The notes under the pieces: generated by a model
The model's database searches: none
What the model saw: the letters and a program-made list of their open reading frames with translations, nothing else
Told to the model about the DNA's origin: nothing
Translations under genes and position numbers: made by a program
Shown: positions 20,624 to 35,891 of the stretch, in pieces
Layout of the letters: each line of letters opens with the position of its first letter
Position numbering within the stretch: the stretch's first letter is position 1
NCBI GenBank assembly: GCA_043228905.1
Contig: JBHGNT010000014.1
Coordinates: 4,402,001-4,466,000 of the forward strand
Direction: 5' to 3'
DNA length: 64,000 nucleotides
Origin: Azolla caroliniana
Taxonomy: Eukaryota > Plantae > Polypodiophyta

Positions 20624-23600
20624 TGTGAACGTAAGTGTTTGCGGAAGCGTAAAACAGAGAACAACACACAGAGAGAGAGAGAGACAGAGAGACAGAGAGA
20701 GCAGAACACAATTTCAAAATTATATCAAGACTCTGCATTTACACACTGTGCTAAGTAGCACTATTTATACAAGTCCTCTTGGGACTGACAGAAATACCAT
20801 GTACTTCAATGCTCACACGAGCATTTGACACTTACTACGAGACTATAGATACCTACTAGTCTATCCTATTCTAGGCTTCCGATTGGACTACCGGTTACGG
20901 ATTGCACCCGGCCTCCACTGCTTGCCGGTTCGGTTGCTCACCGTCATACCGATCCATTTCGCCCGATCCGTCTCGCTTACCGGCTCCGGCTTATTCAGCC
21001 GATCCGGCTCCGGTTGAGCTTGCCGCTCAACACTCCCCCTCAAGCTCAACCTGAGGTGGGGTCATAGTGTCGACCTCTGTGGCAGTCAGTTCTTTCAACC
21101 GACTTCTCCTGGCGTCACTCCGCCTTGCTCGCGCTCCTCGTCCGGTCCAGTCCCGTTTGCCGCGACCCCTTTGGTTCTGCGCGCCTCGACCCTCTCAGTC
21201 GGTATCTCTGCTCAATAGGCCCATCTCAGCAGTCACGTTGCTGTGACTCCGGCGCTTGCCGATCCGTCGGTTCTCCCACGATGGCATCGACTTCCGCTGT
21301 GTCCGTGTCCCCTTGGCCTTCAGTCGATCCGTCTCATCCGGATCCATCTCTTGATCCGAGTCAGCTGTCTCCGACTCGTTCTAGCTCTTGTCTGAATCGG
21401 TACACTCTGATTCGACTTCCGGCGTCAGGCCTCTCACCACATTGGTCCACTTCCGAGTCTTGGCCTTCTCCATGCTTCCCTCGGCTTCTTCAGCCAGTGA
21501 ACCAAAATCGAATTCTTCATTCGACTCTGTATCATGGTCAATACCGTCGTGATGACCTCCGCATAGCATGCGCTTCTCTTCCTGAGTGCACAACTCTTCT
21601 TCACAGCCGCTTGCTCCGACCTGTTCGGATGTGTCGCCTTCCTTCGTCGACTCGGCTTCCTTCAGCTTCTTGTCTCCTCTTCTTCCGGCTCTCCTCTTAC
21701 CGACGGGTTCAACAGGTTTTTGGCCTTTGCCCATTTCGGTAGAGACTTTGCCCTTGCTTCTCCCCCTCAAGTGCGGCACGTCGAGATGCTGAATACCAAG
21801 CATGTCGGTAAAGTGCTGCAACTTGTCCGATCCGAGCGGCTTGGTAAAGATGTCGGCAACTTGCCGATCCGTATGAACATACCGTAGGTCAACTTCACCG
21901 CTCAGGACCCACTCACGCACGAAGTGGTAGTGCACCTCGATGTGCTTTGTGCGAGCATGGAACACAGGGTTCCTGGCGAGCTGCAGGCTGCTCATGTTAT
22001 CGCAGTAAATCGGAATCGGGGTCGGTACCTCGATCCGCAAGTCTCGCAGCAGTCGCCGAAGCCAGATGGCTTCACAAGTGGCAATGGTAGCGGCCCAATA
22101 CTCAACCTCAGTGCTTGACAAAGCCACTGTGGGCTGCTTCTTGCTGCTCCACGCAACGGCAGCGCTACCTATGGAGAACATGTATCCCGAAGTGGAGCGG
22201 CGATCAGACGCATCGCCGGCCCAGTCAGCATCTGTGTAACCGACAAGCTCTTCGGGTATACCTCGTTGGTATAGTAGTCCCCGGTCCTTAGTGCCGCTGA
22301 CATACCATAATATTCGTTGCGCGCACTGAAGGTGCTCCACGGTCGGCTTTTGCATGAACTGACTTACCATCCCGACCGGATAGCTGATGTCGGGTCAGGT
22401 GATGGTTAAGTAGATCAGGCTTCCAACAACCTGTCGGAACCGTTTCTCATTGCAGGCCAGTCCAGAGTTGGGACGGAGCTTCTGGTTTCGGTCCAGGGGT
22501 GTGGAGACAGGTCGGCAATCCGTCATGCCGAACTTATACAGCATATTCAACACGTAATGTCGTTGTGAGAGCAATATGCCGTCGGGGGTCCGGATCACTT
22601 CGATCCCAAGAAAATAATGAAGGTCCCCCAGGTCCTTCATTTCGAATGCGTCCGACAACTGGGACTTGACACGGTTGATTTCGGGAAGACCGGGTCCGGT
22701 GATGACTAAATCATCCACATACAAGAGTATACATATCGGACCGTCAGAGCCTTGCCGGATGAATAACGAAGAGTCCGACTTAGAGACAACAAACCCCAGC
22801 TTACGCAACCGGTGCGTGATCTTCGCGTTCCAAGCTCGGGGGGCTTGCTTCAAGCCGTAAAGCGACTTCTTCAGTCGGCATACCGCCGACTTGTTCATCT
22901 CCGAGTGAAATCCGAGGGGCTGAGTCATAAAGACTTCTTCTTCAAGCTCTCCTTGAAGGAAGGCGTTCTTCACATCCATCTGGTGAAGATGCCACCCCCT
23001 TGCCGCAGCAACCGCCAGTACCACACGAACCGTCGTCATCTTCGCCACAGGAGCGAAGGTCTCATCGTAGTTGATTCCGTGGGTCTGCGCGTATCCCTTT
23101 GCCACTAACCGGGCTTTGTACCGGTTAACAGAACCGTCGGCGTTGTACTTGACCTTGTACACCCACTTGCATCCGATCGGTTTACAGTGACGGGGAGGAT
23201 CAACTAGGTCCCAAGTTTCATTGGCATCGAGTGCCCGCATTTGTTCGTCCATAGCGGCACGCCAATTTGCATCCTTTGCCGCTTCTGCGTAGCTCTCCGG
23301 CTCGCGCACTTCTGTCACCTTAGTCATGTACGCATAATGATGCGCCATGTATTCATTGTACCCGTACTGCACGATGGGATCCTTCGGACGGGTTGATTGG
23401 CGCAACACACCGTCACCTGATTTGAGGCCCTTCTTGGCCAGTTCGGTCTTCGTTGCTGAAGATCTGCCTTTCTCCTTTCCGGAGTCGGATATGCACCGAT
23501 CCGACTCATCGATGCCGGTTTCGAATTCCGGCATCTTCCTTTTCCCTTTCTCTTTGCGCGTGAACCGTTTCCTCGACTCCTTGCGCAGGGAGAGCACGGC

Positions 23601-26567
23601 AGAGTCTCCACCACTTGCCGTCTCTTCATCCGACTAGTCCAACCGACTCAATCGCTCGTTCGGTCCACTCAACCGTAACGATTCCGGACTCTCATCTTGA
23701 GTCCTTGCATCATCATCCTCTGCCAGGGCTGATTCAGGCTCACTGGCCTGATCTTCCGACATTGGGTCGGGATCGGAAGTTGGAGTGGGTGCGGAATACC
23801 AGGATGCCGATTCATCGAACTCGACATCCCGGCTAACTCGGACTTCCTTCGTCCGGGGGTTATAGCACTTATACCCCTTTTGCTCTTCAGCATAGCCGAC
23901 TAGGATGCATTTTTCTGATTTTGCATCCAGCTTTCTCCGCTTCTGATCCGGCACATGCACATACGCTATGCTGCCGAATATCCGAAGGTGTCTCAAGTTC
24001 GGCTTGCGCCCGAAATACAGCTCATGAGCTGACACCTTGTCACCAATGCGGTTTTGTATGTAGACGGCCGTCCGGACCGCCTCCGCCCAGTAGAACCGGG
24101 GCATGCTCTTCTCCTCCAGCATTGTCCTTGCCGCTTCGACGAGTGTCCGGTTCTTCCTTTTCGGCCACACCGTTTTTCTCCGGTGTGTACCTGCAGCTGA
24201 ACTCTCGCCGTATTCCCTTCTGGTGCAGATAACTAGTGAATTGGCCGGAAAAATATTCCTTTCCGCCATCCGACCGAAGGCATTTGATCTTCCTCTCCGA
24301 TTCCCGTTCCACCATCTTCTGGAGGCTCCGGAAACAGTCGAAGACTTCACTCTTCCGCTCAATGAGGTAGATCCAAGTATGCCGAGTATAGTCGTCGATG
24401 AAGGAGACGAAGTATCGGCTCCCGCCAAGGCTTACACTTTGTGCCGGTCCCCACACATCCGAATGGATGAGATCGAGCTTGTTACGGCTCCGGTTCCGTT
24501 CGGTGGGGAATGGAAGCCGGTGTTGCTTCCCAAGTTGGCAGGCTTCACAAATTTCGGCTCTCCGGCCGCTGAACTTCGGCAAACCGAAAACGACTTGTTT
24601 CGTTTGCAGATCTTGAAGCCTCCGGTAGTTGACGTGGCCTATCCGCTTGTGCCACAGGTCGATGTCTGACTCGACCTTCTGTCGTTTCGCGAACAGAGTG
24701 GTGCCAAAGTCATTGGTGTCGAGGATAAACATCCTCCCGTCTCTGCGCCCTTGCGCAATGACTTCGCCCTCATCCTCAATGAAGCACCCGAGGTGCGTAA
24801 ACCGCACCTGCATCCCCTGGTCGACAATTTGATCAACAGACACCAGGTTCTTCGTGATCGTCGGAACGTGTAACACGTTCATCAGCTTCCCTTTCTGTCC
24901 GACGTGACTTAGAGGGACTTCTCCGACGTGCACGATTGGGTGAGGAGTGTCGTCTCTGGTTTCGACTACTCCTGGTTGAACCGGTCTCTCCAGAAAGGAG
25001 AACCACTCTTTGTGGCTCGTCATGTGGTTCGACGCGCCGGAATCAACATACCACACTTCCTCCGTTTTGGAAGTGGTCTTCTTCATTGAGTTTGCCTTGT
25101 GATTCATCACCAAGGCTGGCCCCTTGCCGGCCTTTCCGGTTCCGGATCTTTCTGAACCGTTTGCGTAGTGCGAGTTTTGCCGGCCATCCTTACTGGTCTT
25201 GCCGGATCCGGATTTGTCCGAATCGGCACGCTTTCTCCAGCACTCACTTTCCCTGTGGCCCTTTTTGCCACAGTACCAGCATTCCGTAGCGGATTTGTCT
25301 TGCCGGCTTCCGGCACCGCCTTGACTCCCCCTGCTTGTGGAAGTCCCGGAATTGCTGTCGGCACGCTCATAGTGCCTCCGTTCCTGCTCTTGCCGGCCGC
25401 CTCCATTGCGTGCCGACCCACCTCTTCCACCACGCCCACGGAGCCGATCTGTTCCCGTGTACAGCATTCGGTTGTCCGGGGATGCACTGGTAGATGCACC
25501 GGCGTGGTTCTCCTCTACAAGGAGCATCGACTATAAGTCGAAGAATGAGGGGGTATTCTCCCTTGTACACACCGCAGTCCGGAACGCTCCGAACTTGGAC
25601 GCCAAGCCTCCGAGACATACCTGCACCATCTCGTCTTCCTCTACAGTAACATTGATAGAGGCGAGCGAGTCGCAGATCTCCTTTATCCGGCCCGTGTAGT
25701 CTGCCACAGACATGTTCTTCTGTCGAACATTGCTCAACTCCTGTCTGAGTTGCAGCTTCCGGGCAGTGGTGCTTGCGGCGAAAACCTTTTTCAGGTTCCC
25801 CCAAGCATCCTTCGGTGTCTTGGCGTCACGGATGTGGCTGAGCAGCTGATCGCCGACACTGGACGCGAAGCAGTACATCACCCTGCTTGCCGCCTGTTCC
25901 CATACCGGGAAGTCCTTGTGTGCCGAGTCTGGCGCCGCATCATTCGCTCCTTCGACATAACTCCAGTACCCGTGTCCAAGCAGGTACTGGTGCATCTTGT
26001 AAGACCAAGATGCGTAGTTGCTCCTGTCGAGCTTCTCCACCGGGAGCGACGTAGCCATGCCTCTATCCATGTCTTCTACTGTGTCTGTTTTCGACCTGTT
26101 AGGGTTTTCTTCTCAAGAGTAAATGTCTGCAGCAGAGGTTCTCAACCCTCGCACTCTGATACCATGTGAACGTAAGTGTTTGCGGAAGCGTAAAACAGAG
26201 AACAACACAGAGAGAGAGAGACAGAGACAGAGAGAGCAGAACACAATTTCAAAATTATATCAAGACTCTGCATTTACACACTGTGCTAAGTAGCACTATT
26301 TATACTAGTCCTCTTGGGACTGATAGAAATACCATGTACTTCAATGCTCACACGAACATCTGACACTTACTACGAGACTATAGATACCTAGTAGTCTATC
26401 CTATTCTAGGCTTCCGATTGGACTGCCGGTTACGGATTGCACCCGGCCTCCACTGCTTGCCGGTTCGGTTGCTCACCGTCATACCGATCCGTTTCGCCCG
26501 ATCCGTCTCGCTTACCGGCTCCGGCTTATTCAGCCGATCCGGCTCCGGTTGAGCTTGCCGCTCAACA
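20624..26567 (-). mobile_element. Structurally complete Copia C
   Basis: LTRs at 20624-21032 and 26165-26567 differ at only a handful of sites. Perfect TSD TTTAT, iMet PBS (TGGTATCAGAG) and PPT GAGGGGGAG. Confidence 0.97.
21381..26070 (-). pseudogene. Copia C gag-PR-INT-RT-RH polyprotein, recently inactivated
   Basis: All domains present (CWYCGKKGHRESEC, YVDSGAS, HSDVWGP, LYVDDL, YTDADWAG, ARTKHIEVHYHF). Interrupted by stops near 25531, 23634 and 22395 and a frameshift near 24160. Confidence 0.92.
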
Positions 26568-26789
26568 TTTATCTAATCAACAAGTCTCCTTTTGTGCCTC
26601 TGAAAGGTGATGTTTCACAAAGGGTGTGGTTAGGTATAGATGTCTCCTACCAACACCCGGGGGTGTTCGGATGCCTAGTATATATGCATGTAACTAAGGA
26701 TAAGAGGTCGAAGCTCGATAGCAAGTAGAAACCATGCATATTTCTGGGGTATTCGGAGGATGAATTAGGCTATAGGCTATCCGAGAACC

Positions 26790-27495
26790 ATAGTTGAGTA
26801 AAGTAGCTAATTAGCTATCCTACTAGCTAATTAGCTACTACCATAGTTGAGTAACGTACCTAATTAGCTATCCTACTAGCTAATTAGCTACTGGCAACTA
26901 ATTAGCTATCCTAGTAGCTAATTAGCTGCTGGCAACTAATTAGCTATCCTACTAGCGAATTAGCTATCCTAGTAGCTACTGCCATAGTTGTGTAAAGTAG
27001 CTAATAAGCTATCCTAGTAGCTAATTAGCTACTGGCAGCTAATTATGTATCCTAGTAGCTAATTAGCTACTGGCAGCTAATTAGCTATCCTAGTAGCTAA
27101 TTAGCTGATGGCAACTAATTAGCTATCCTACTAGCGAATTAGCTATCCTAGTAGCTACTGCCATAGTTGTGTAAAGTAGCTAATAAGCTATCCTAGTAGC
27201 TAATTAGCTACTGGCAGCTAATTATGTATCCTAGTAGCTAATTAGCTACTGGCAGCTAATTAGCTATCCTAGTAGCTAATTAGCTACTGGCAGCTAATTA
27301 GCTGTCCTAGTAGCTAATAAGCTATCCTAACTACTACCATAGTTGAGTAAAGTACCTAATTAGCTATCCTAACTACTACCATAGTTGAGTAAAGTACCTA
27401 ATTAGCTATCATACTAGCTAATTAGCTATCGTACTAGCTAATTAGCTATCCTAGCTTCTACCATAGTTTAGTAAAGTAGCTAATTAGCTATCCTA
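26790..27495. repeat. TAGCTAATTAGCTA palindrome array (left)
   Basis: Dozens of copies of the 14-bp palindrome with short spacers and higher-order repetition; the array ends just before an AG splice acceptor at 27516-27517. Confidence 0.95.
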
Positions 27496-27517
27496 AATAA
27501 CTGTCATGTTATTGTAG

Positions 27518-29396
27518 AATCTTGTGGATTAAGGACGGCACATGATGTGTCTGGTGCTGATGATGCTGCAACAGATGAGGATACTACTGCCAATGTGGCT
27601 GAAAGTAAGAGTCCTGCTATCACATCTCCTTCAGATCAGCTGCACCCTATTCTTTTGGAACAGTGTACTGAATTAGGCAACGATGTGAAATGCCATGAAA
27701 TAGTGGAAACAACATGTAAAACTGAGGTTCACAACAACAGTGTTTATGAACACTTGATGCAACATTTCTTCGAGTCTCAAGACCTTGATTCCACCCCACC
27801 GAGCCCAACTACTGAAAATGTCCAAACAGATCCCTCTGTACTTGAAAAGCTAGTTCAAGAAACGGCTGATGTGCAATTAGCTGCTGAGGCGATGGGAAGG
27901 TTGTCGGAGGAGGACACACTTGCGCATTGGGTCCTAGAAGCAAGGCTAAATGGGGAACCAACCAGAAAAAGGCTGAAGAAGGGGCCACGATCGGGAACAA
28001 GACCAGTTACTCGGTCAAGGGGCCCAGACGTAGTGGAGCGAAATACTGTTTAGTTGGATATGATTGTTAGCTTAGGGATTTTGCTAGGGTTTTATGAAGT
28101 TTTACTATCCTGTTGGACAAGTAAAACCTCAGATTGGTTGTTGCTTGATCCACATTATGTAATGGAACTCTATGATGTTTTTCCAAGATAATTTGAAGAG
28201 TGTTGTTCTATGACTGAAACTCTTTGATGTTCAGGATATTGTTTTGTGAGACTAGTAGTTACTTTGTGAGTGTGAATATGTTGGTGTTTTCTGATGTTGC
28301 AGAGTCTAAAGGGTTTGATTCTATTGCTCGTAAGGCCAATGGCAGTGTGGATACTGTTGATGTTGCGGCATGTTTAAAGGGCCCCATCTTGAAAGTAGAT
28401 GTAGCAACTGACACAAGTGATCTGGTCACACAAGTTGATCAAGCATGTAGCACGGATGACTTGGTGTTGCAGGTAGATGCAGCATGTAGCACGGATGACT
28501 TGGTGTTGCAGGTAGATGCAGCATGTAGCACGGATGACTTGGTGTTGCAGGTAGATGCAGCATGTAGCACGGATGACTTGGTGTTGCAGGTAGATGCAGC
28601 ATGTGATACCAGTGGATTGATATCGAGCAGAACAGTAGCTACATGCACTGAGGTAATCCAAGGATTGATAACTAAGTCGACAAAACAAGAGCACCAGAAT
28701 GTGAAGCTAGGCCCAACACAGTCGACTAGGGGTTTAAAGAGGAAAAGGACACCAGTTGTGTCAGCCGAACCTGAGCTGATTGAGATTGATCGTATCCTAC
28801 CAGAAAATGGTGTAACAGCGGCTCAGTTTCAGGAATGGAAACCTAAACCACTAGAAGTCGAGCGAAGAGCCTTGATCTTGGAGCTGGATAAAGTCTTGAT
28901 GAGTGTGAGATATATGCAGCCAAGGAGGGACGCAAATCAGTTTCTAGAGTGGGCTGCGGAGTACTTCGATTTGTTTATTTGGAGTGAGAAACCAAAATCA
29001 GATGTGTGGAAGTGTTTGGCAAGATTCTTCCCAAAATGGCGAAGTCGTTTTAAAGGTCAATGGGCACGAGAAAATTGTGAGCAGATGGAAGCTGCAAGAT
29101 TCAAGAGGCTTTCTGATTTTTGGGCTACTTGGCCTGAATATAATGCTGACAATACATTGATTTTGGATACAGAACATTTCCGACACTACTTCAATATTCG
29201 GAGATGCTGTCTCATTCTACCCGAGGAAATGCCTGAACAGTACCTGGTGCAAACAGTGAGCTGCCAACTAGGTGCATGGTTGTGGACTCCATACCGAGCT
29301 CAATATGCGGATAATATATGTAGACTCGTTCCACTGACTAGCAAGAGCTTAGCTGTTTATAGGAGATTTGTAGACATTTCCAATGGTAATTTATAA
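27518..29396 (+). CDS. Transposon accessory protein, 5'-truncated: 13-aa repeats, KRKR NLS and C-terminal FCP1/NIF-like (HAD-fold) domain
   Basis: Predicted exons 27518-27604 and 28303-29396 (phase-1 GT/AG). Motifs LILELDKVL...RRDANQFLEW..YFDLFIWS...WARENC...KRLSDFW...NTLILD follow the NIF/SCP pattern. No start exon is visible. Confidence 0.6.
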
Positions 29397-29579
29397 ATAT
29401 GTAAAGAGATGACATTATTCAATGAAGAATTTTGTTCCCACTGTACTTATCTACTATGTAATTTGAGGAATATGTTGCAGATTGTTGATTTCATTCTATT
29501 GATGACTATTTAGCTATTGACAGCTAATTAGCTACATTTGTACAGCTAATTAGCTGCATTTGTACAGCTAATTAGCTGC

Positions 29580-30055
29580 ATTTGTACAGCTAATTAGCTA
29601 CTGATGAGTCTGTCGCTATAACTTATAACTTAAAACTTAACAAAAAAGACATGATTTTATTGAGAAAGAAGCACAGAAAGCAGACTGTATACAAGAATTT
29701 GATTCCAAACGAATTTATTGATCTGTTTTCGCGAAATACATGTTTGTTTTACAAGAGAACATGGTAAGTGCTACTTGTAGCTACAAATTCCATGGCATAC
29801 TATTGTAAATACATTTGTACAGCTAATTAGCTACTGATGAGTCTGTCGCTATAACTTATAACTTAAAACTTAACAAAAAAGACATGATTTTATTGAGAAA
29901 GAAGCACAGAAAGCAGACTGTATACAAGAAATTGATTCCAAACGAATTTATTGATCTGTTTTCGCGAAATACATGTTTGTTTTACAAGAGAACATGGTAA
30001 GTGCTACTTGTAGCTACAAATTCCATGGCATACTATTGTAAATACATTTGTACAG
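29580..30055. repeat. 233-bp tandem duplication of the transposase stop and 3' UTR
   Basis: CTGATGAGTC recurs at 29601 and 29834; the last codons (CIYNSMPWNL*) are duplicated. Confidence 0.9.
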
Positions 30056-33000
30056 CTTAGCACCAACAGTGTATAAACCGGAGCAGCTATTGTATTCTGA
30101 CATTGGGACGTTGATGCATCTGACCAAATGAGAGTACATATACGCTGCTGGTTTGTCTTCTAACAGCCTGTACACATATTCGTAGTCATCTAGTTTTGCA
30201 TAAAAAATGCCTTCGATGTAGAATGTCCCGGCAGATACAAAATTTCCCCATGCATCTACAATATTCTGCCTTGCACACTGTTTACTAACCGTGCACTTTA
30301 ATATATAGAAATCAACACCCTCTGAATTGCCTTCTTCAGCATTTACAGCGAAGTTATCCCCAACGTTCAGGACATCACTCAAAGTATCTCCAAGTCCCTC
30401 ATATGTGAAGTCAGCATTCTGCCCTGTTTCTCCATCAACTGCTTCCTTATCATTCAGAGTGTGATACTCCCAATTCTGAATGTATGCTTTGTTTAGACAA
30501 TATCTCCAATTTCCCTGCACACAATGGAAGCAAAAACAAGTCAATTCTCTAACCGCAATACAATGACCATCCAACCTGGAATAACCGCGAACAGCATGCA
30601 GAGATCGCAATTCGGGAATTCCTTGGCACTCCCAGGTCTTCTCCCTATTTACTTCATCTATCTTCACTTCCCAAAATTCATGTTTGATATCTCGAACTTG
30701 CGAGGAATAAACACCTGTGGCACTCGTCGACATATTTGTTCTTAAAAATTCAACTACATGTGATGCACAATTCATGTGCACACCATCTGTCTTTAGTTGT
30801 TCATGGGTAAGTGCCCGCTTTATAACAGCCCCTGCACCATCATGTTCACCTTTACCATGGCCAGACCCAAAAAAATTCCATCTCATCTCCAAACCTGTTA
30901 TAGCAGGATACCTCCCCACAAAATAAAATGGACGTCGAGCCTTGAATTGTGACGCAGCTCCGTCAGACCAGACCCAATGTTGAGTAAGCTCCAAACGTTG
31001 AGCTAATAACCACTGCCAATGTAACTTAAAACAGTGTTGGACGAACAAGGTATCATGCTTCTTATCATCGGAAATAAAGAAATGAATTACTTTTTTAACA
31101 TCACCTGAAACTCGAAAATATGTTATGTGCACAAAAATGGTTACCTGAACTGAACACCAATGCATAGATTGAATTTCATTCTGCTGCTTGAAAGTATAAT
31201 TCTCTGCGAAATCTACTACTGAGACTACTACATCATTTGGGAAATCAGATATGCAAGTCTTAAACTGATGGGCCTGCCATGAATAAATGAAGTTGTGTTT
31301 AATGAACTTTCCTAGAGATACTACAAACAGAGACACCAAATCCCTTGGTTTAAGCATCTTCCGAACTAGATCCTTTCTTTTACACACCTTTCCTTCGAAA
31401 TTGGTGTTCACTGACTCAAATAACTTCACAGAGATCAATATTTCACTACTCAATTCTTTTGGACACCACCTAAATCTAGTAGGGCCACAATCTTGACATA
31501 AACCCATGACACATTTATGAATATGGAAGATAGCGTCAGATTCTCTCGGACACAATATTGAATCTAATAAATAACTCATGGAAGAGATAACGTGCTCAGA
31601 TGATTTACACTCCTCTTGCGGGCTTGATCGACAGATTTGGCACCCACATGTGCAAACTGTATTAGTTAGGGATGCGCTATGGTGACGTAGTAGATTAACA
31701 GAGTCCTTCAGAAAACCCATCTGTACATGGTAAATGCAACAACATGTGTATCGATCCTTTAAGCGTCTCACAAAGTGTGGCTTAAGAGACTCGAATGTTC
31801 GTAGTTGAACTTTGATAGTTGGATGCATTCGTTTGAACCTAATAAATAAATCGACCTGCGTAATAAAGGGGAATTAGTTATTCTCGTAACTAGCTAACTA
31901 TCCTAGTAGCTAATTAGCTATTCTAGTAGCTAGTTAGCTATTCTAGTAGCTAGTTAGCTATTCTAGTAGCCAATTAGCTATCATGGTAGCTAATTAGCTA
32001 TTCTAGTAGCTAATTAGCTATCATGGTACCTAATTAGCTGTCGTAGTAGCTAATTAGCTATCATGGTACCTAATTAGCTGTCGTAGTAGCTAATTAGCTA
32101 TCATGGTAGCTAATTAGCTGTCGTAGTAGCTAATTAGCTGTCGTAGTAGCTAATTAGCTATCATGGTAGCTAATTAGCTATTCTAGTAGCTAATTAGCTA
32201 TCATGGTAGCTAGTTAGCTGTCGTAGTAGCTAATTAGCTATCATGGTAGCTAGTTAGCTGTCGTAGTAGCTAATTAGCTATCATGGTAGCTAATTAGCTG
32301 TCGTAGTAGCTAATTAGCTATCATGGTAGCTAATTAGCTGTCGTAGTAGCTAATTAGCTATCATGGTAGCTAATTAGCTGTCGTAGTAGCTAATTAGCTA
32401 TCATGGTAGCTAATTAGCTATTCTAGTAGCTAATTAGCTATTCTAGTAGCTAATTAGCTATCATGGTAGCTAATTAGCTGTCGTAGTAGCTAATTAGCTA
32501 TCATGGTAGCTAATTAGCTGTCCTAGTAGCTAATTAGTTGTCCTAGTAGCTAATTAGCTATCATGGTGGCTAATTAGCTTGTCTACTAGCTAATTAGCTA
32601 TCATGGTGGCTAATTAGCTTTCCTAGTAACTAATTAGCTATCATGGTAGCTAATTAGCTGGTCTAGAAGCTAATTAGCTATCGTGGTAGCTAATTAGCTA
32701 GTCTAGTAGCTAATTAGCTATAATGGTGGCTGATTAGCTTTCCTAGTAACTAATTAGCTATCATGGTAGCTAATTAGCTGGTATAGTAGCTAATTAGCTA
32801 TCATGGTAGCTAATTAGCTATCACGGTGGCTAATTAGCTGTCCTAGTAACTAATTAGCTATCATGGTAGCTAATTAGCTGGTCTAGTAGCTAATTAGCTA
32901 TAATGGTGGCTAATTAGCTATCCTAACTAATTAGCTATCATGGTAGTAGCTATTGAGAGTAGCCAGTTACCTATGTAGTAGCTATCATAGTAGCTAATTA

Positions 33001-34049
33001 GCTATCATGGTAGCTAATTAGCTTTCCTAGTAGCTAATTAGTTGGTAATAACGAAATAGCTAACTAGCTACCATGATAGCTAACTAGCTAGCAGTACAGC
33101 TAATTATCTGGTAGTACCTAAATTAGCTATTGAGAATAGCTAATTAGCTATCATGGTAGTAACTATTGAGAGTAGCTAGTTACCTATGTAGTAGCGATCC
33201 TAGTAGCTAACTGAGGTAAATGTAACTGATAAGCTAATTAGCTTTTCTGCTAACTGAGCTAATTAACTTTCCGAGTAGAGTCAAAACAAATGTTGAGATA
33301 AATGTAAATACCTGAGGTACATCAAGAAGATGAATGGGATGCTCCTCGTATTGATTTCTTCCAACACGTTTCCTGCATAAATCCTTTTTATTGGGTGAAA
33401 CCCTACTCTCATTAGTCCAAAACATTGTGATTACATCCTTGATTTCAAATGTTATGGGTGTCATTGGCTTACATCTTGTAGTTAGCTTTAGTAGACTAGT
33501 TCCTTCACCCGAGGAAATTATACGGTTCATTGTATTGTACACTGTTTTTCTACTAACACCAATTACCTTAGATAGCTCACTGATGTTTATATCGTCAACA
33601 TCACTATTAAGTAACATCATTAGACTAGACCTTTTTAAGACAAGATCATCTTCTGACCTGCTCATGGATACGAAACTATTACGAAGATTATTTACTAAAA
33701 TAGATGATATGTTTGCATTAAGACCATCACAATCAACTAAGTCCTTTATCGATGGATCATTACATATTCCATAAAGTACTACCTTCTTTTCTTCATTGCT
33801 GATGTGCTTGGTTTGAACATTGAAATAGTCTACAACCTTTCTCTCTATGATGGTAGTCGCATTACTTACATTCTCATCTAAACTATCCTTACCTTTACTG
33901 AGTGTGGCTTTCGTATCCTTCAACAATTGACGATGTTTCCTTTTTTTTTCTGCCCAATAGTTTCGTATGGCTTGTTGTGTCCTGATAACATCATCCCTAT
34001 CCTTATGATCATTGAGGGGTAATTCTAAACACCCTTCTTCCCCTTCCAT
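30014..34049 (-). CDS. Sola2-like DDD transposase, two exons (34049-33312, 31855-30014), about 860 aa
   Basis: A phase-0 GT...AG intron joins LLDVPQ|VDLFIRFKRMHP. Motifs RYTCCCIYH, VDFAENY-QNEIQSMHW, SDDKKHD, WSDGAASQFK and FFGSGHGKGEHDGAG. No stops or frameshifts. Confidence 0.8.
31880..33265. repeat. TAGCTAATTAGCTA palindrome array filling the transposase intron
   Basis: 20-bp period (14-bp palindrome plus a 6-bp spacer such as TCATGG, TCGTAG or TTCTAG), roughly 60 units. Confidence 0.95.
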
Positions 34050-34394
34050 TTGGCTAGACATGTTAAAACCCTAAATTTCCAGAAAAAAAAACAAGTATTA
34101 AAGATGGCTATGGGCAACAACAATACACAAAAATATTCCACACAATACACAAGATTAGACACAACAATACACAAGATAATCAATAGACAGAAAAGTTATT
34201 GCAATCCAAGACCGAACAGTAGAGGATTTCACTCTGTTGGATCCAACAGTTGAGGAGGCGATCCAAGACCGACCAATGGCAACAACTGAGTGTAGAATGT
34301 TGCCGTTGGATGAGTGAACTCCGTCAAATCGAAATGTGGAAGCAATCCGGGACTGGACAGTAGTGGCAACTGAGTATAGAATGATGGCAATGGA

Positions 34395-35045
34395 GGAGAG
34401 AACCCCGTCAGATTGAACAGTTACCGATGATGCTTGAAACGCACATAGAAGGCACTTGAGAATAGAGTGGCATAGAGAAGAGAACCCCGTCAGATTGAAC
34501 AGTTACCAATGATGCTTGAAACGCACAGTAGCGGCCCCTGAGTGACAGTGGAAAAGAGAAGAGAACCCCGTCAGATTGAACAGTTACCAATGATGCTTGA
34601 AACGCACAGTAGCGGCCCCTGAGTGAGAGTGGAAAAGAGAAGAGAACCCCGTCAGATTGAACAGTTACCAATGATGCTTGAAACGCACAGTAGCGGCCCC
34701 TGAGTGAGAGTGGAAAAGAGAAGAGAACCCCGTCAGATTGAATAGCTCTTCGATTATGCTTGGAACGCACAGTAGCAACCCCTGAGTGTAGAGTGGCAAA
34801 GAGAAGAGAACCCCGTCAGATTGAACAACTCTTTGATGATGCTTGGAACGCACAGTAATGGCCCCTGAGTGTAGAGTGGCACAGAGAAGAGAACCCCGTC
34901 AGATTGAACAGCTCTTTGATGATGCTTGGAATGCACAATAGTGGCCCCTGAGTGTAGAGTGTCACAGAGAAGAGAACCCCGTCAGATTGAGCAGCTCTTT
35001 GATGATGCTTGGAACGCACAGTAGCAGCCCCTCAGTGTAGAGTGG
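34395..35045. repeat. 81-83-bp tandem repeat x8 upstream of the transposase
   Basis: The CAG of GAGAACCCCGTCAGATTGA recurs at 34409, 34491, 34572, 34653, 34734, 34817, 34900 and 34983. Confidence 0.9.
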
Positions 35046-35891
35046 CGGCAGGTGGACTCGATAGGGTTTAGCAACAGTGGTAGCAACTAACCCACAGTAC
35101 TCAACTAGAGATGGCCTACGTGATGTGGCAAAGGATCATGCATAATGGACCTAGGAATTCGATATATAATTTATGGTACACATTTATGGTGCACACATCA
35201 ATTTATGTTGCACATTTATGGCACTCATTTACATATGTAATTAAAACACTCTAGTATTTTCAATGGTAGTTTTTTGCATACTTAATTTATTAATGATGGC
35301 TTTTTACTAAAATGACTATTTATCAATGGTAGCTTTTTGCATAGCTAATTAGCTATGTCAAGGACATAGCTAATTGTTTCCACTCGCATGCTTTCACCCA
35401 TGGGACCTTCTCAATAAGAAGGTTGTGAGGAGTTGAGACTTTGTGTTTATGGAAGACAAGACAATCGAAGACTGGAAACAACAACATTTGGGGTTGTCTT
35501 GTCAACGGACTCCGAACACATGACTAGTCGACTTGGCACAATCGATTGTTAAGACAACCAATCGAAATAGCCGAATCCGAGTCGGTTGACTCGGAGCAAC
35601 TGACAAACACATATGAGTCGGAGTCAACAGAACTCCAACAACCAACTGACATGCATGAACCCGAGCTGAATGAAGAGCCAACAGAGACATCTGAACCTGA
35701 ACCAACAATGGGAGGCATGAGATATCCACTTAGAGAAAGGAGAGCACCCACACGATACGCCAATCAATACGTCCTCTTGATTGATGACAGTGAGCGAGAA
35801 TGCTATTATATGCGGATGACATGTTAATAGTCGGACAGGACACAAAGAAGATCGTGAGCTTAAAGAAAGCCCTAGACAAATCGTTTGCCAT

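Follow-up and report, generated by a model that had tools for sequence, protein, structure and literature searches.

Which element occupies positions 26781-35399 of a 64,000-nucleotide stretch of the Azolla caroliniana genome (contig JBHGNT010000014.1, positions 4,402,001 to 4,466,000; this whole stretch is called the window), and what does its second gene do? The locus had been predicted to hold a two-gene Sola2-like DNA transposon. The element is a young, high-copy Sola2 DNA transposon of about 12 kb with hundreds of copies in the genome, and the window contains a broken copy of it. The second gene (gene 2) is conserved in this Sola2 element. In the preferred reading, which by analogy with other plant transposons is given a probability of about 0.5, its product binds family-specific motif arrays and helps the element escape silencing.

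The transposase is encoded on the minus strand as follows.
33312-34061, minus strand: transposase exon 1, with a weak helix-turn-helix (HTH) match.
31856-33311, minus strand: transposase intron of 1456 nt, GT..AG, filled by a motif array with a 20-bp period.
30014-31855, minus strand: transposase exon 2, with a Cys/His region and the predicted D-D-D triad.

The intact two-exon transposase of the original prediction was borne out, with a joined frame of 863 aa, no internal stop and all of the named motifs: CCCIYH (aa 288), DFAENY (465), SDGAASQFK (547) and HGKGEHDG (583). The predicted triad is D465 (31213-31211), D548 (30964-30962) and D589 (30841-30839), and these three putatively catalytic Asp residues (D215, D298 and D339 of exon 2) were invariant across 45 relatives. 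The predicted intron has support from homology and not from RNA; 14 database homologues span the exon junction and aligned without a gap. The HTH lies at aa 147-185 (about 33623-33507) and matched Pfam HTH_11 at E 5.8e-5, which is below cut-off.

Assignment of the transposase to Sola2 was supported by sequence comparison. The motif blocks matched, by eye, the Sola2 alignment in file S10 of PMC3627910, and homologues P0112 and P0116 closely resembled its Sola2-2_SP row. The target-site duplication (TSD) of Sola2 is given there as 4 bp and AT-rich. No Sola family match was found in a Pfam scan of the window proteins, and PMC5751038 describes Pfam as having no Sola model. Among the named homologues were those of a moss, a liverwort, two conifers, ferns, one fish and a sea cucumber. 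A tree of the transposase core (61 rows, P0083 dropped) was built from database homologues only. The window and the named plant rows fell in a clade of 41 rows (98/94 support) and the animal rows fell apart from it.

Other copies were searched for with a 167-aa piece of the transposase. A total of 150 matches were scored out of 1270 candidates and their identity was 97-100%. The 20 top copies were fetched, 19 were extended and both ends were located in 17. Whole copies were 11.3-12.5 kb in size, with one of 9.0 kb due to an internal deletion (n = 17). The copy number, terminal inverted repeats (TIRs) and TSD, which had been left to be defined, are given by these copies: the TIRs were 25 bp with 24/25 matching in 17 copies, a 4-bp TSD was present in 17/17 copies with both ends, and exact 26-nt end patterns had 286 and 252 matches in the genome compared to 0 for a reversed-pattern control. 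Target sites were 76% A+T over 42 sites, with an exact AWWT in 4/42. Sola2 termini were reportedly described by Bao and colleagues in 2009 as 5'-GRG..CYC-3', and the GGG..CCC termini found in both families of this genome (the second is described below) fit this rule. The transposase was intact in 14/17 whole copies. The mean distance of its coding sequence was 0.37% (15 equal-length copies), which somewhat overstates youth because the copies were chosen as best matches. A non-TIR mechanism (Helitron- or Replitron-like) was prompted by the unmatched ends in the window and was rejected because whole copies have TIRs and TSDs.

The window copy and its ends are as follows.
26781-35399, no strand assigned: left-truncated Sola2 DNA transposon copy, sitting in a Copia integrase region.
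26781-26786, no strand assigned: 6-bp filler at the deletion breakpoint.
35375-35399, minus strand: right TIR, 25 bp, 24/25 identical to the left TIR of whole copies.
35400-35403, plus strand: right copy of the target duplication, ATGG, as inferred from the 4-bp rule in whole copies.

Of the span first proposed, the right boundary at 35399 is genuine, whereas the left one at 26781 marks a deletion breakpoint that was found once in the genome. The break falls inside a motif array, and whole copies extend about 3-4 kb further left to the TIR. The left TIR and five exons of gene 2 are missing while the transposase frame is whole. The window copy is likely immobile itself because of these losses. 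Recent activity had also been proposed, and it holds for the family rather than for the window copy because that copy is without one end. The element splits a Copia integrase frame, whose two halves continue each other across the insertion. On the left the 4-bp target copy has shrunk to AT (26779-26780). In the same place (26775-26790) the remnant AT precedes CC, which complements the lost GG, and then GAGA. Speculatively, this single case could be a hairpin-type footprint of a one-ended cut.

The convergent second gene was present as predicted, but the window holds only its last exons.
26787-27517, plus strand: rest of gene-2 intron 5, with a AGCTAATTAGCT motif array (1.5-2.2 kb in whole copies).
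27518-27604, plus strand: gene-2 exon 6, phase-1 acceptor, donor AAA/GTAAGA at 27605.
27605-28053, plus strand: open read-through of exon 6, coding for an acidic tail with a basic stretch at its end (in the predicted 618-aa isoform; in the long isoform this would be intron).
28303-29396, plus strand: last gene-2 exon, with a NIF/FCP1-like HAD domain at about 28908-29198 (predicted 833-aa isoform).

In whole copies a six-exon GT-AG model encoded 618 aa and was open in 13/17; three of the other four had one stop and one was without the exons. The GT of the exon-6 donor was kept in 23/23 aligned copies. This donor joins in phase to the acceptor at 28303, giving a predicted 833-aa form with the order N domain, coiled coil, RING-like finger, linker and NIF domain. 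The NIF exon was open in 13/17 whole copies and its joining to gene 2 is predicted from the sequence. Gene 2 as a stand-alone NIF open reading frame was dropped in favor of this multi-exon gene, given the six-exon model and the in-phase donor. At locus L143:7110-7601 (60% transposase identity) the convergent gene ends in an acidic exon with a basic tail and no NIF frame was seen, which fits the short read-through isoform. An in-frame 39-bp coding repeat (28442-28604 in the window) varied in copy number, the NIF exon ranging from 975 to 1092 nt in fetched copies, and a similar 39-bp coding repeat was present in the second family. Gene-2 intron 2 (about 1600-2200 of locus L083) was filled in whole copies by degenerate repeats with TTAGGGTTT, which resemble plant telomere or telo-box motifs.

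Within the element both genes evolve under purifying selection. In comparison with 10 older copies from this genome, the ratio of nonsynonymous to synonymous substitution (dN/dS) was 0.20 for the transposase, 0.36 for gene-2 exons 1-6, 0.22 for the N domain and 0.25 for the NIF domain. With the frame shifted as a control, the N and NIF domains gave 1.07-1.48. The read-through tail had a dN/dS of 0.60, which was not significant.

The N-domain profile matched 513 protein clusters at E of at most 1e-3, with members annotated in Ceratodon and Adiantum. None of 35 tested clusters (0/35) had a Pfam match. With nine close relatives removed the profile matched the exon of the window family at E 1.2e-5 among 10,755 segments; an earlier score of E 1.2e-11 was inflated because close relatives were in the profile. 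A single-sequence phmmer search with the N domain gave no matches. Its predicted structure had a predicted local distance difference test (pLDDT) score of 90.6 and a predicted template modeling (pTM) score of 0.85. No named family was found in Pfam, the ESM Atlas, PDB sequences, Foldseek or VIA-align (best Z 3.4), a result that shows neither an absence of relatives nor a new fold. VANC21 appeared in the fold search at Z 2.2 (root-mean-square deviation 4.2, 108/135 aligned) and Z 2.1 (4.0, 104 aligned), values not above background, and this modeled likeness is a lead and no more. Neither DUF1985 nor DUF287 appeared among the matches listed for the N-domain family, with the best 25 of 46 weak families covered in one of the searches. 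The motifs of the N domain may bear a likeness to those of DUF1985/PMD; searches for both families found no match in the genome, nor in the controls.

The RING-like pattern C-x2-C..C-x-H-x2-H-x2-C..C-x3/4-C was kept across lineages. The same RING was found in 16/153 collected proteins (29 of the 153 were at least 340 aa). The NIF domain matched Pfam NIF at E 1.2e-7 (32 bits compared to a cut-off of 21.8), and loci L145 and L146 also passed. The catalytic motif of NIF/FCP1-like phosphatases is DxDx(T/V). The first NIF motif reads ELDKV in the window and DLNGL/DLNGV in L145 and L146, which depart from DxDx(T/V), and judged from these residues the domain is likely catalytically dead. The NIF exon is likely a later, optional add-on limited to one subclade.

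The linkage of the two genes in other copies and lineages was also found. Related loci (80) were collected from metagenome contigs, of which 48 were clustered into 31 groups; the profiles had been seeded in part with these loci. A convergent N-domain and/or RING frame was present in 9/13 distant groups with at least 3.5 kb downstream. L145 and L146, which have shorter flanks, contained a convergent NIF frame. A TIR/TSD scan in 25 metagenome loci gave no convincing pair, so the accessory gene is placed inside element ends for the two families of the Azolla genome only.

In a blind test, a search of the genome with a distant N/RING protein found another repeated RING with 84 matches. An N domain with a convergent transposase was present in 5/6 fetched copies of a second Sola2 family, the sixth being interrupted. 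Its transposase was 46-47% identical to that of the window. The measured copy was 12.7 kb, with its own TIR, and a 4-bp TSD was present in 5/5. This family (loci L239-L256; for example G000:C4, about 4901860-4914545) is young and has an extra transposase intron and an N-domain/RING gene, in which no NIF match was found. Genome searches with P0002 and P0022 returned only the first family.

The element-specific repeat arrays noted earlier were confirmed by counts. The motif GCTAATTAGC occurred 65 times in the window, all within 26781-35399. In the 17 fetched copies it occurred 1564 times in 201 kb inside the elements and 0 times in 130 kb of flank. The two families had different motifs: GCTAATTAGC was counted 70 times in family 1 compared to 0 in family 2, and AGTACTAA 39 times in family 2 compared to 0 in family 1. 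Copies of AGTACTAA lay close to each end, in an array beyond the RING exon and upstream of the transposase. In each family the motif was near both ends, at a fixed place 34-83 bp from them, and in an array downstream of the RING exon. Most motif copies were in introns, kilobases from the ends. The array in the transposase intron ranged from 0.7 to 1.8 kb among copies and many relatives had their own array in this intron. Two further motif features lie in the window.
29520-29601, no strand assigned: small motif array between the two 3' ends.
35344-35374, no strand assigned: subterminal motif copy and ATGTC..GACAT palindrome.

In L142 and L146 (59% and 45% transposase identity) the TIR kept its outer 13 bp while the array motif differed. 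The inner palindrome ATGTC..GACA was likewise conserved in these two loci, and the tip of L143 was less conserved. Arrays in copy L033/L083 were CG-poor, with 8/557 and 10/412 cytosines in CG sites compared to about 10% in exons, and would thus offer mostly CHH context to methylation.

How might these parts work together? The transposase would cut at the TIRs and insert with a 4-nt stagger, a cut-and-paste route proposed because of the element ends and the established chemistry of DDD transposases. The gene-2 product is compared to two accessory proteins of plant DNA transposons, VANC and TnpA. By this analogy the N domain may read the motif, the coiled coil may oligomerize the protein along the arrays and the RING-like finger may recruit ubiquitination to chromatin or silencing factors. 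The motifs would be cognate to the accessory protein.

A motif-binding anti-silencing regulator was favored because the layout matches that of VANC of the Arabidopsis VANDAL elements (PMC5735166), with motifs in introns and peptide repeats. VANC, too, is the product of an accessory gene in a plant DNA transposon; short motifs particular to each family have been amplified into tandem repeats in its introns and elsewhere outside the coding sequence, and the variable region of VANC contains tandemly repeated peptides (PMC5735166). In contrast, VANDAL has a Mutator-like transposase while the window element is a Sola2 with a 4-bp TSD, VANC has DUF1985 and DUF287, which were not among the matches listed here, and anti-silencing was shown for VANC but is proposed here by analogy. 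TnpA of En/Spm is likewise a sequence-specific accessory regulator of a plant DNA transposon (10.64898/2026.08.24.746577). Unlike gene 2, which is a separate convergent gene with an N domain lacking a significant fold match, TnpA derives from a pair of transposase HTHs.

The alternative that survives best, although unlikely, is that the motifs are sites of the HTH of the transposase itself, for end recognition and self-activation. The accessory protein would then work solely by contacting other proteins, for instance as an E3 ligase responsible for the turnover of the transposase or of a factor of the host. The fixed motif near both ends in both families agrees with this alternative. The HTH identity was 32-57% compared to 53-79% for the core in L142, L143, L146 and L147, and with this faster divergence the HTH could be tracking the motifs. 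The motif of L146 also resembles its own TIR, and the AtMu1 transposase alone activates cognate copies (preprint 10.64898/2026.08.24.746577). However, the outer TIR and the palindrome are conserved while the motif changes completely, and the bulk of the motif copies are intronic and far from the ends.

Transposition cofactor, the role of the second proteins of Harbinger and En/Spm, is an improbable one for the accessory protein. It would bind the subterminal motifs and the transposase to build a transpososome, which accords with the strict linkage and the subterminal motif copies. Maize TnpA is needed for transposition (10.64898/2026.08.24.746577). On the other side, the transposase has its own HTH-like region, some loci had no accessory gene and the kilobase intronic arrays are left unexplained. 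Capture of gene 2 as a passenger, with arrays that are no more than neutral minisatellites, is very improbable and was largely refuted by the selection and linkage results. In its favor, the NIF exon looks captured and is confined to one subclade, and array lengths vary freely among copies. Against it stand purifying selection within the element, a domain order and orientation that stay the same beside transposases only 35-47% identical, and a motif that each family has both at its two ends and in separate arrays.

Several points weigh against the preferred reading, in addition to the HTH divergence and the TIR-like motif of L146. In 4/13 distant groups that had 3.5 kb or more downstream, no accessory gene was found. 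The 8-mer that ranked first in the transposase intron recurred downstream (p<0.01) in only 4/18 loci, many of which were short or decayed. The RING was below the Pfam cut-off, with E 0.098 in the window family and 2e-4 in L219. The analysed copies were the best matches and are biased to youth and intactness. DNA binding, ligase activity and an effect on methylation are predicted only, by analogy. RNA supports the gene model, in that gene 2 is spliced in a close relative: contigs from runs X1, X2 and X4 skipped exactly the predicted 78-nt intron 3. These contigs come from a single study and from a relative about 95% identical to the window family. All three departed from the model after 42 nt of exon 4, which indicates that the transcribed copy is rearranged or spliced otherwise. 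A loose contig end matched the end of exon 2 in X1 and X2, not in X4, and no contig spliced at intron 3 was found in X3. RNA of X1, X2, X3 and X5 on 27500-31880 had no joint at the predicted introns, which is uninformative either way.

A wider proposal is that land-plant Sola2 elements carry an old, independent anti-silencing system, in which a DNA-binding domain of undescribed fold, fused to a RING ubiquitin ligase, co-evolves with intronic motif arrays by family. Its likeness to VANC would be due to convergence or to very remote kinship, with the system acting via targeted ubiquitination from mosses to ferns. This extension is tentative and somewhat doubtful.

The original prediction took Sola2 as known mainly from animals and protists and as single-gene elements, and both parts need qualification. 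In the conifer Cupressus, Sola2 reportedly makes up the main superfamily of DNA transposons, and unsplit Sola is reported in the ferns Ceratopteris and Azolla. These are repeat-annotation counts, with neither element structure nor a second gene described in the accessible passages, and what they share with the window family is occurrence in non-flowering land plants, with abundance in some. Sola elements with a second gene are also known. Sola2-Fanzor1 of Dictyostelium and Polysphondylium (PMC3627910) is a Sola2 with a second gene and a 4-bp AT-rich TSD. Its cargo is the TnpB-like Fanzor1 and not an N-domain, coiled-coil and RING protein, and the accessible part of that paper does not mention motif arrays. 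Sola1-1_Ec32 of Ectocarpus (PMC12477816) is a large Sola with an opposite-strand accessory gene proposed to act on DNA. Unlike the window element it is a Sola1, and its accessory protein is a ParB plus DNA methyltransferase.

The window family shares with the Repbase Sola2 group the motif order Cys/His, DF.ENY, SDG..QFK and HGK..DG, the short TIR, the AT-rich 4-bp TSD and a transposase of about 860-890 aa. It differs in its size of about 12 kb, spliced transposase, array-filled intron and convergent accessory gene, in its place in a plant clade apart from the animal rows, and in the rarity of an exact AWWT target. The suggestion of an undescribed plant combination therefore held in part: plant Sola2 and two-gene Sola were already published, but the accessory gene and motif design were not found in print. 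A literature search that had Repbase, Dfam and subscription papers outside its range turned up no description of a Sola2 with motif arrays or with an N-domain/RING accessory gene, and a catalogued entry is possible.

Transposon-encoded, sequence-specific counter-silencing is documented for Mutator-like and En/Spm elements of flowering plants, in the accessible sources. If the preferred reading is true, this would add a second system, of different structure, from another superfamily and from non-flowering plants, and would bear on the generality of the arms race. The N domain defines a new protein domain family with no Pfam name. The two young families with different motifs in one genome are a ready specificity test, the intact copies open Sola2 biochemistry to testing, and as a possible chromatin tool the fusion of a RING with a programmable motif-reader would be attractive.

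Two other repeats lie within the window copy.
34357-35046, no strand assigned: tandem array of 83-bp units that lies upstream of the transposase and lacks the motif.
29579-30057, no strand assigned: 233-bp tandem duplication that takes in the last transposase codons.

The copy number of the 233-bp duplication differed between elements. Fragments of a different transposase-like frame were seen just left of a family-2 copy (L239:5719-6712). A Copia element in several pieces, with a stop and a frameshift, lies at 21384-26169 of the window and adjoins the host Copia. The remaining long frames in the window resemble remains of long terminal repeat retrotransposons.

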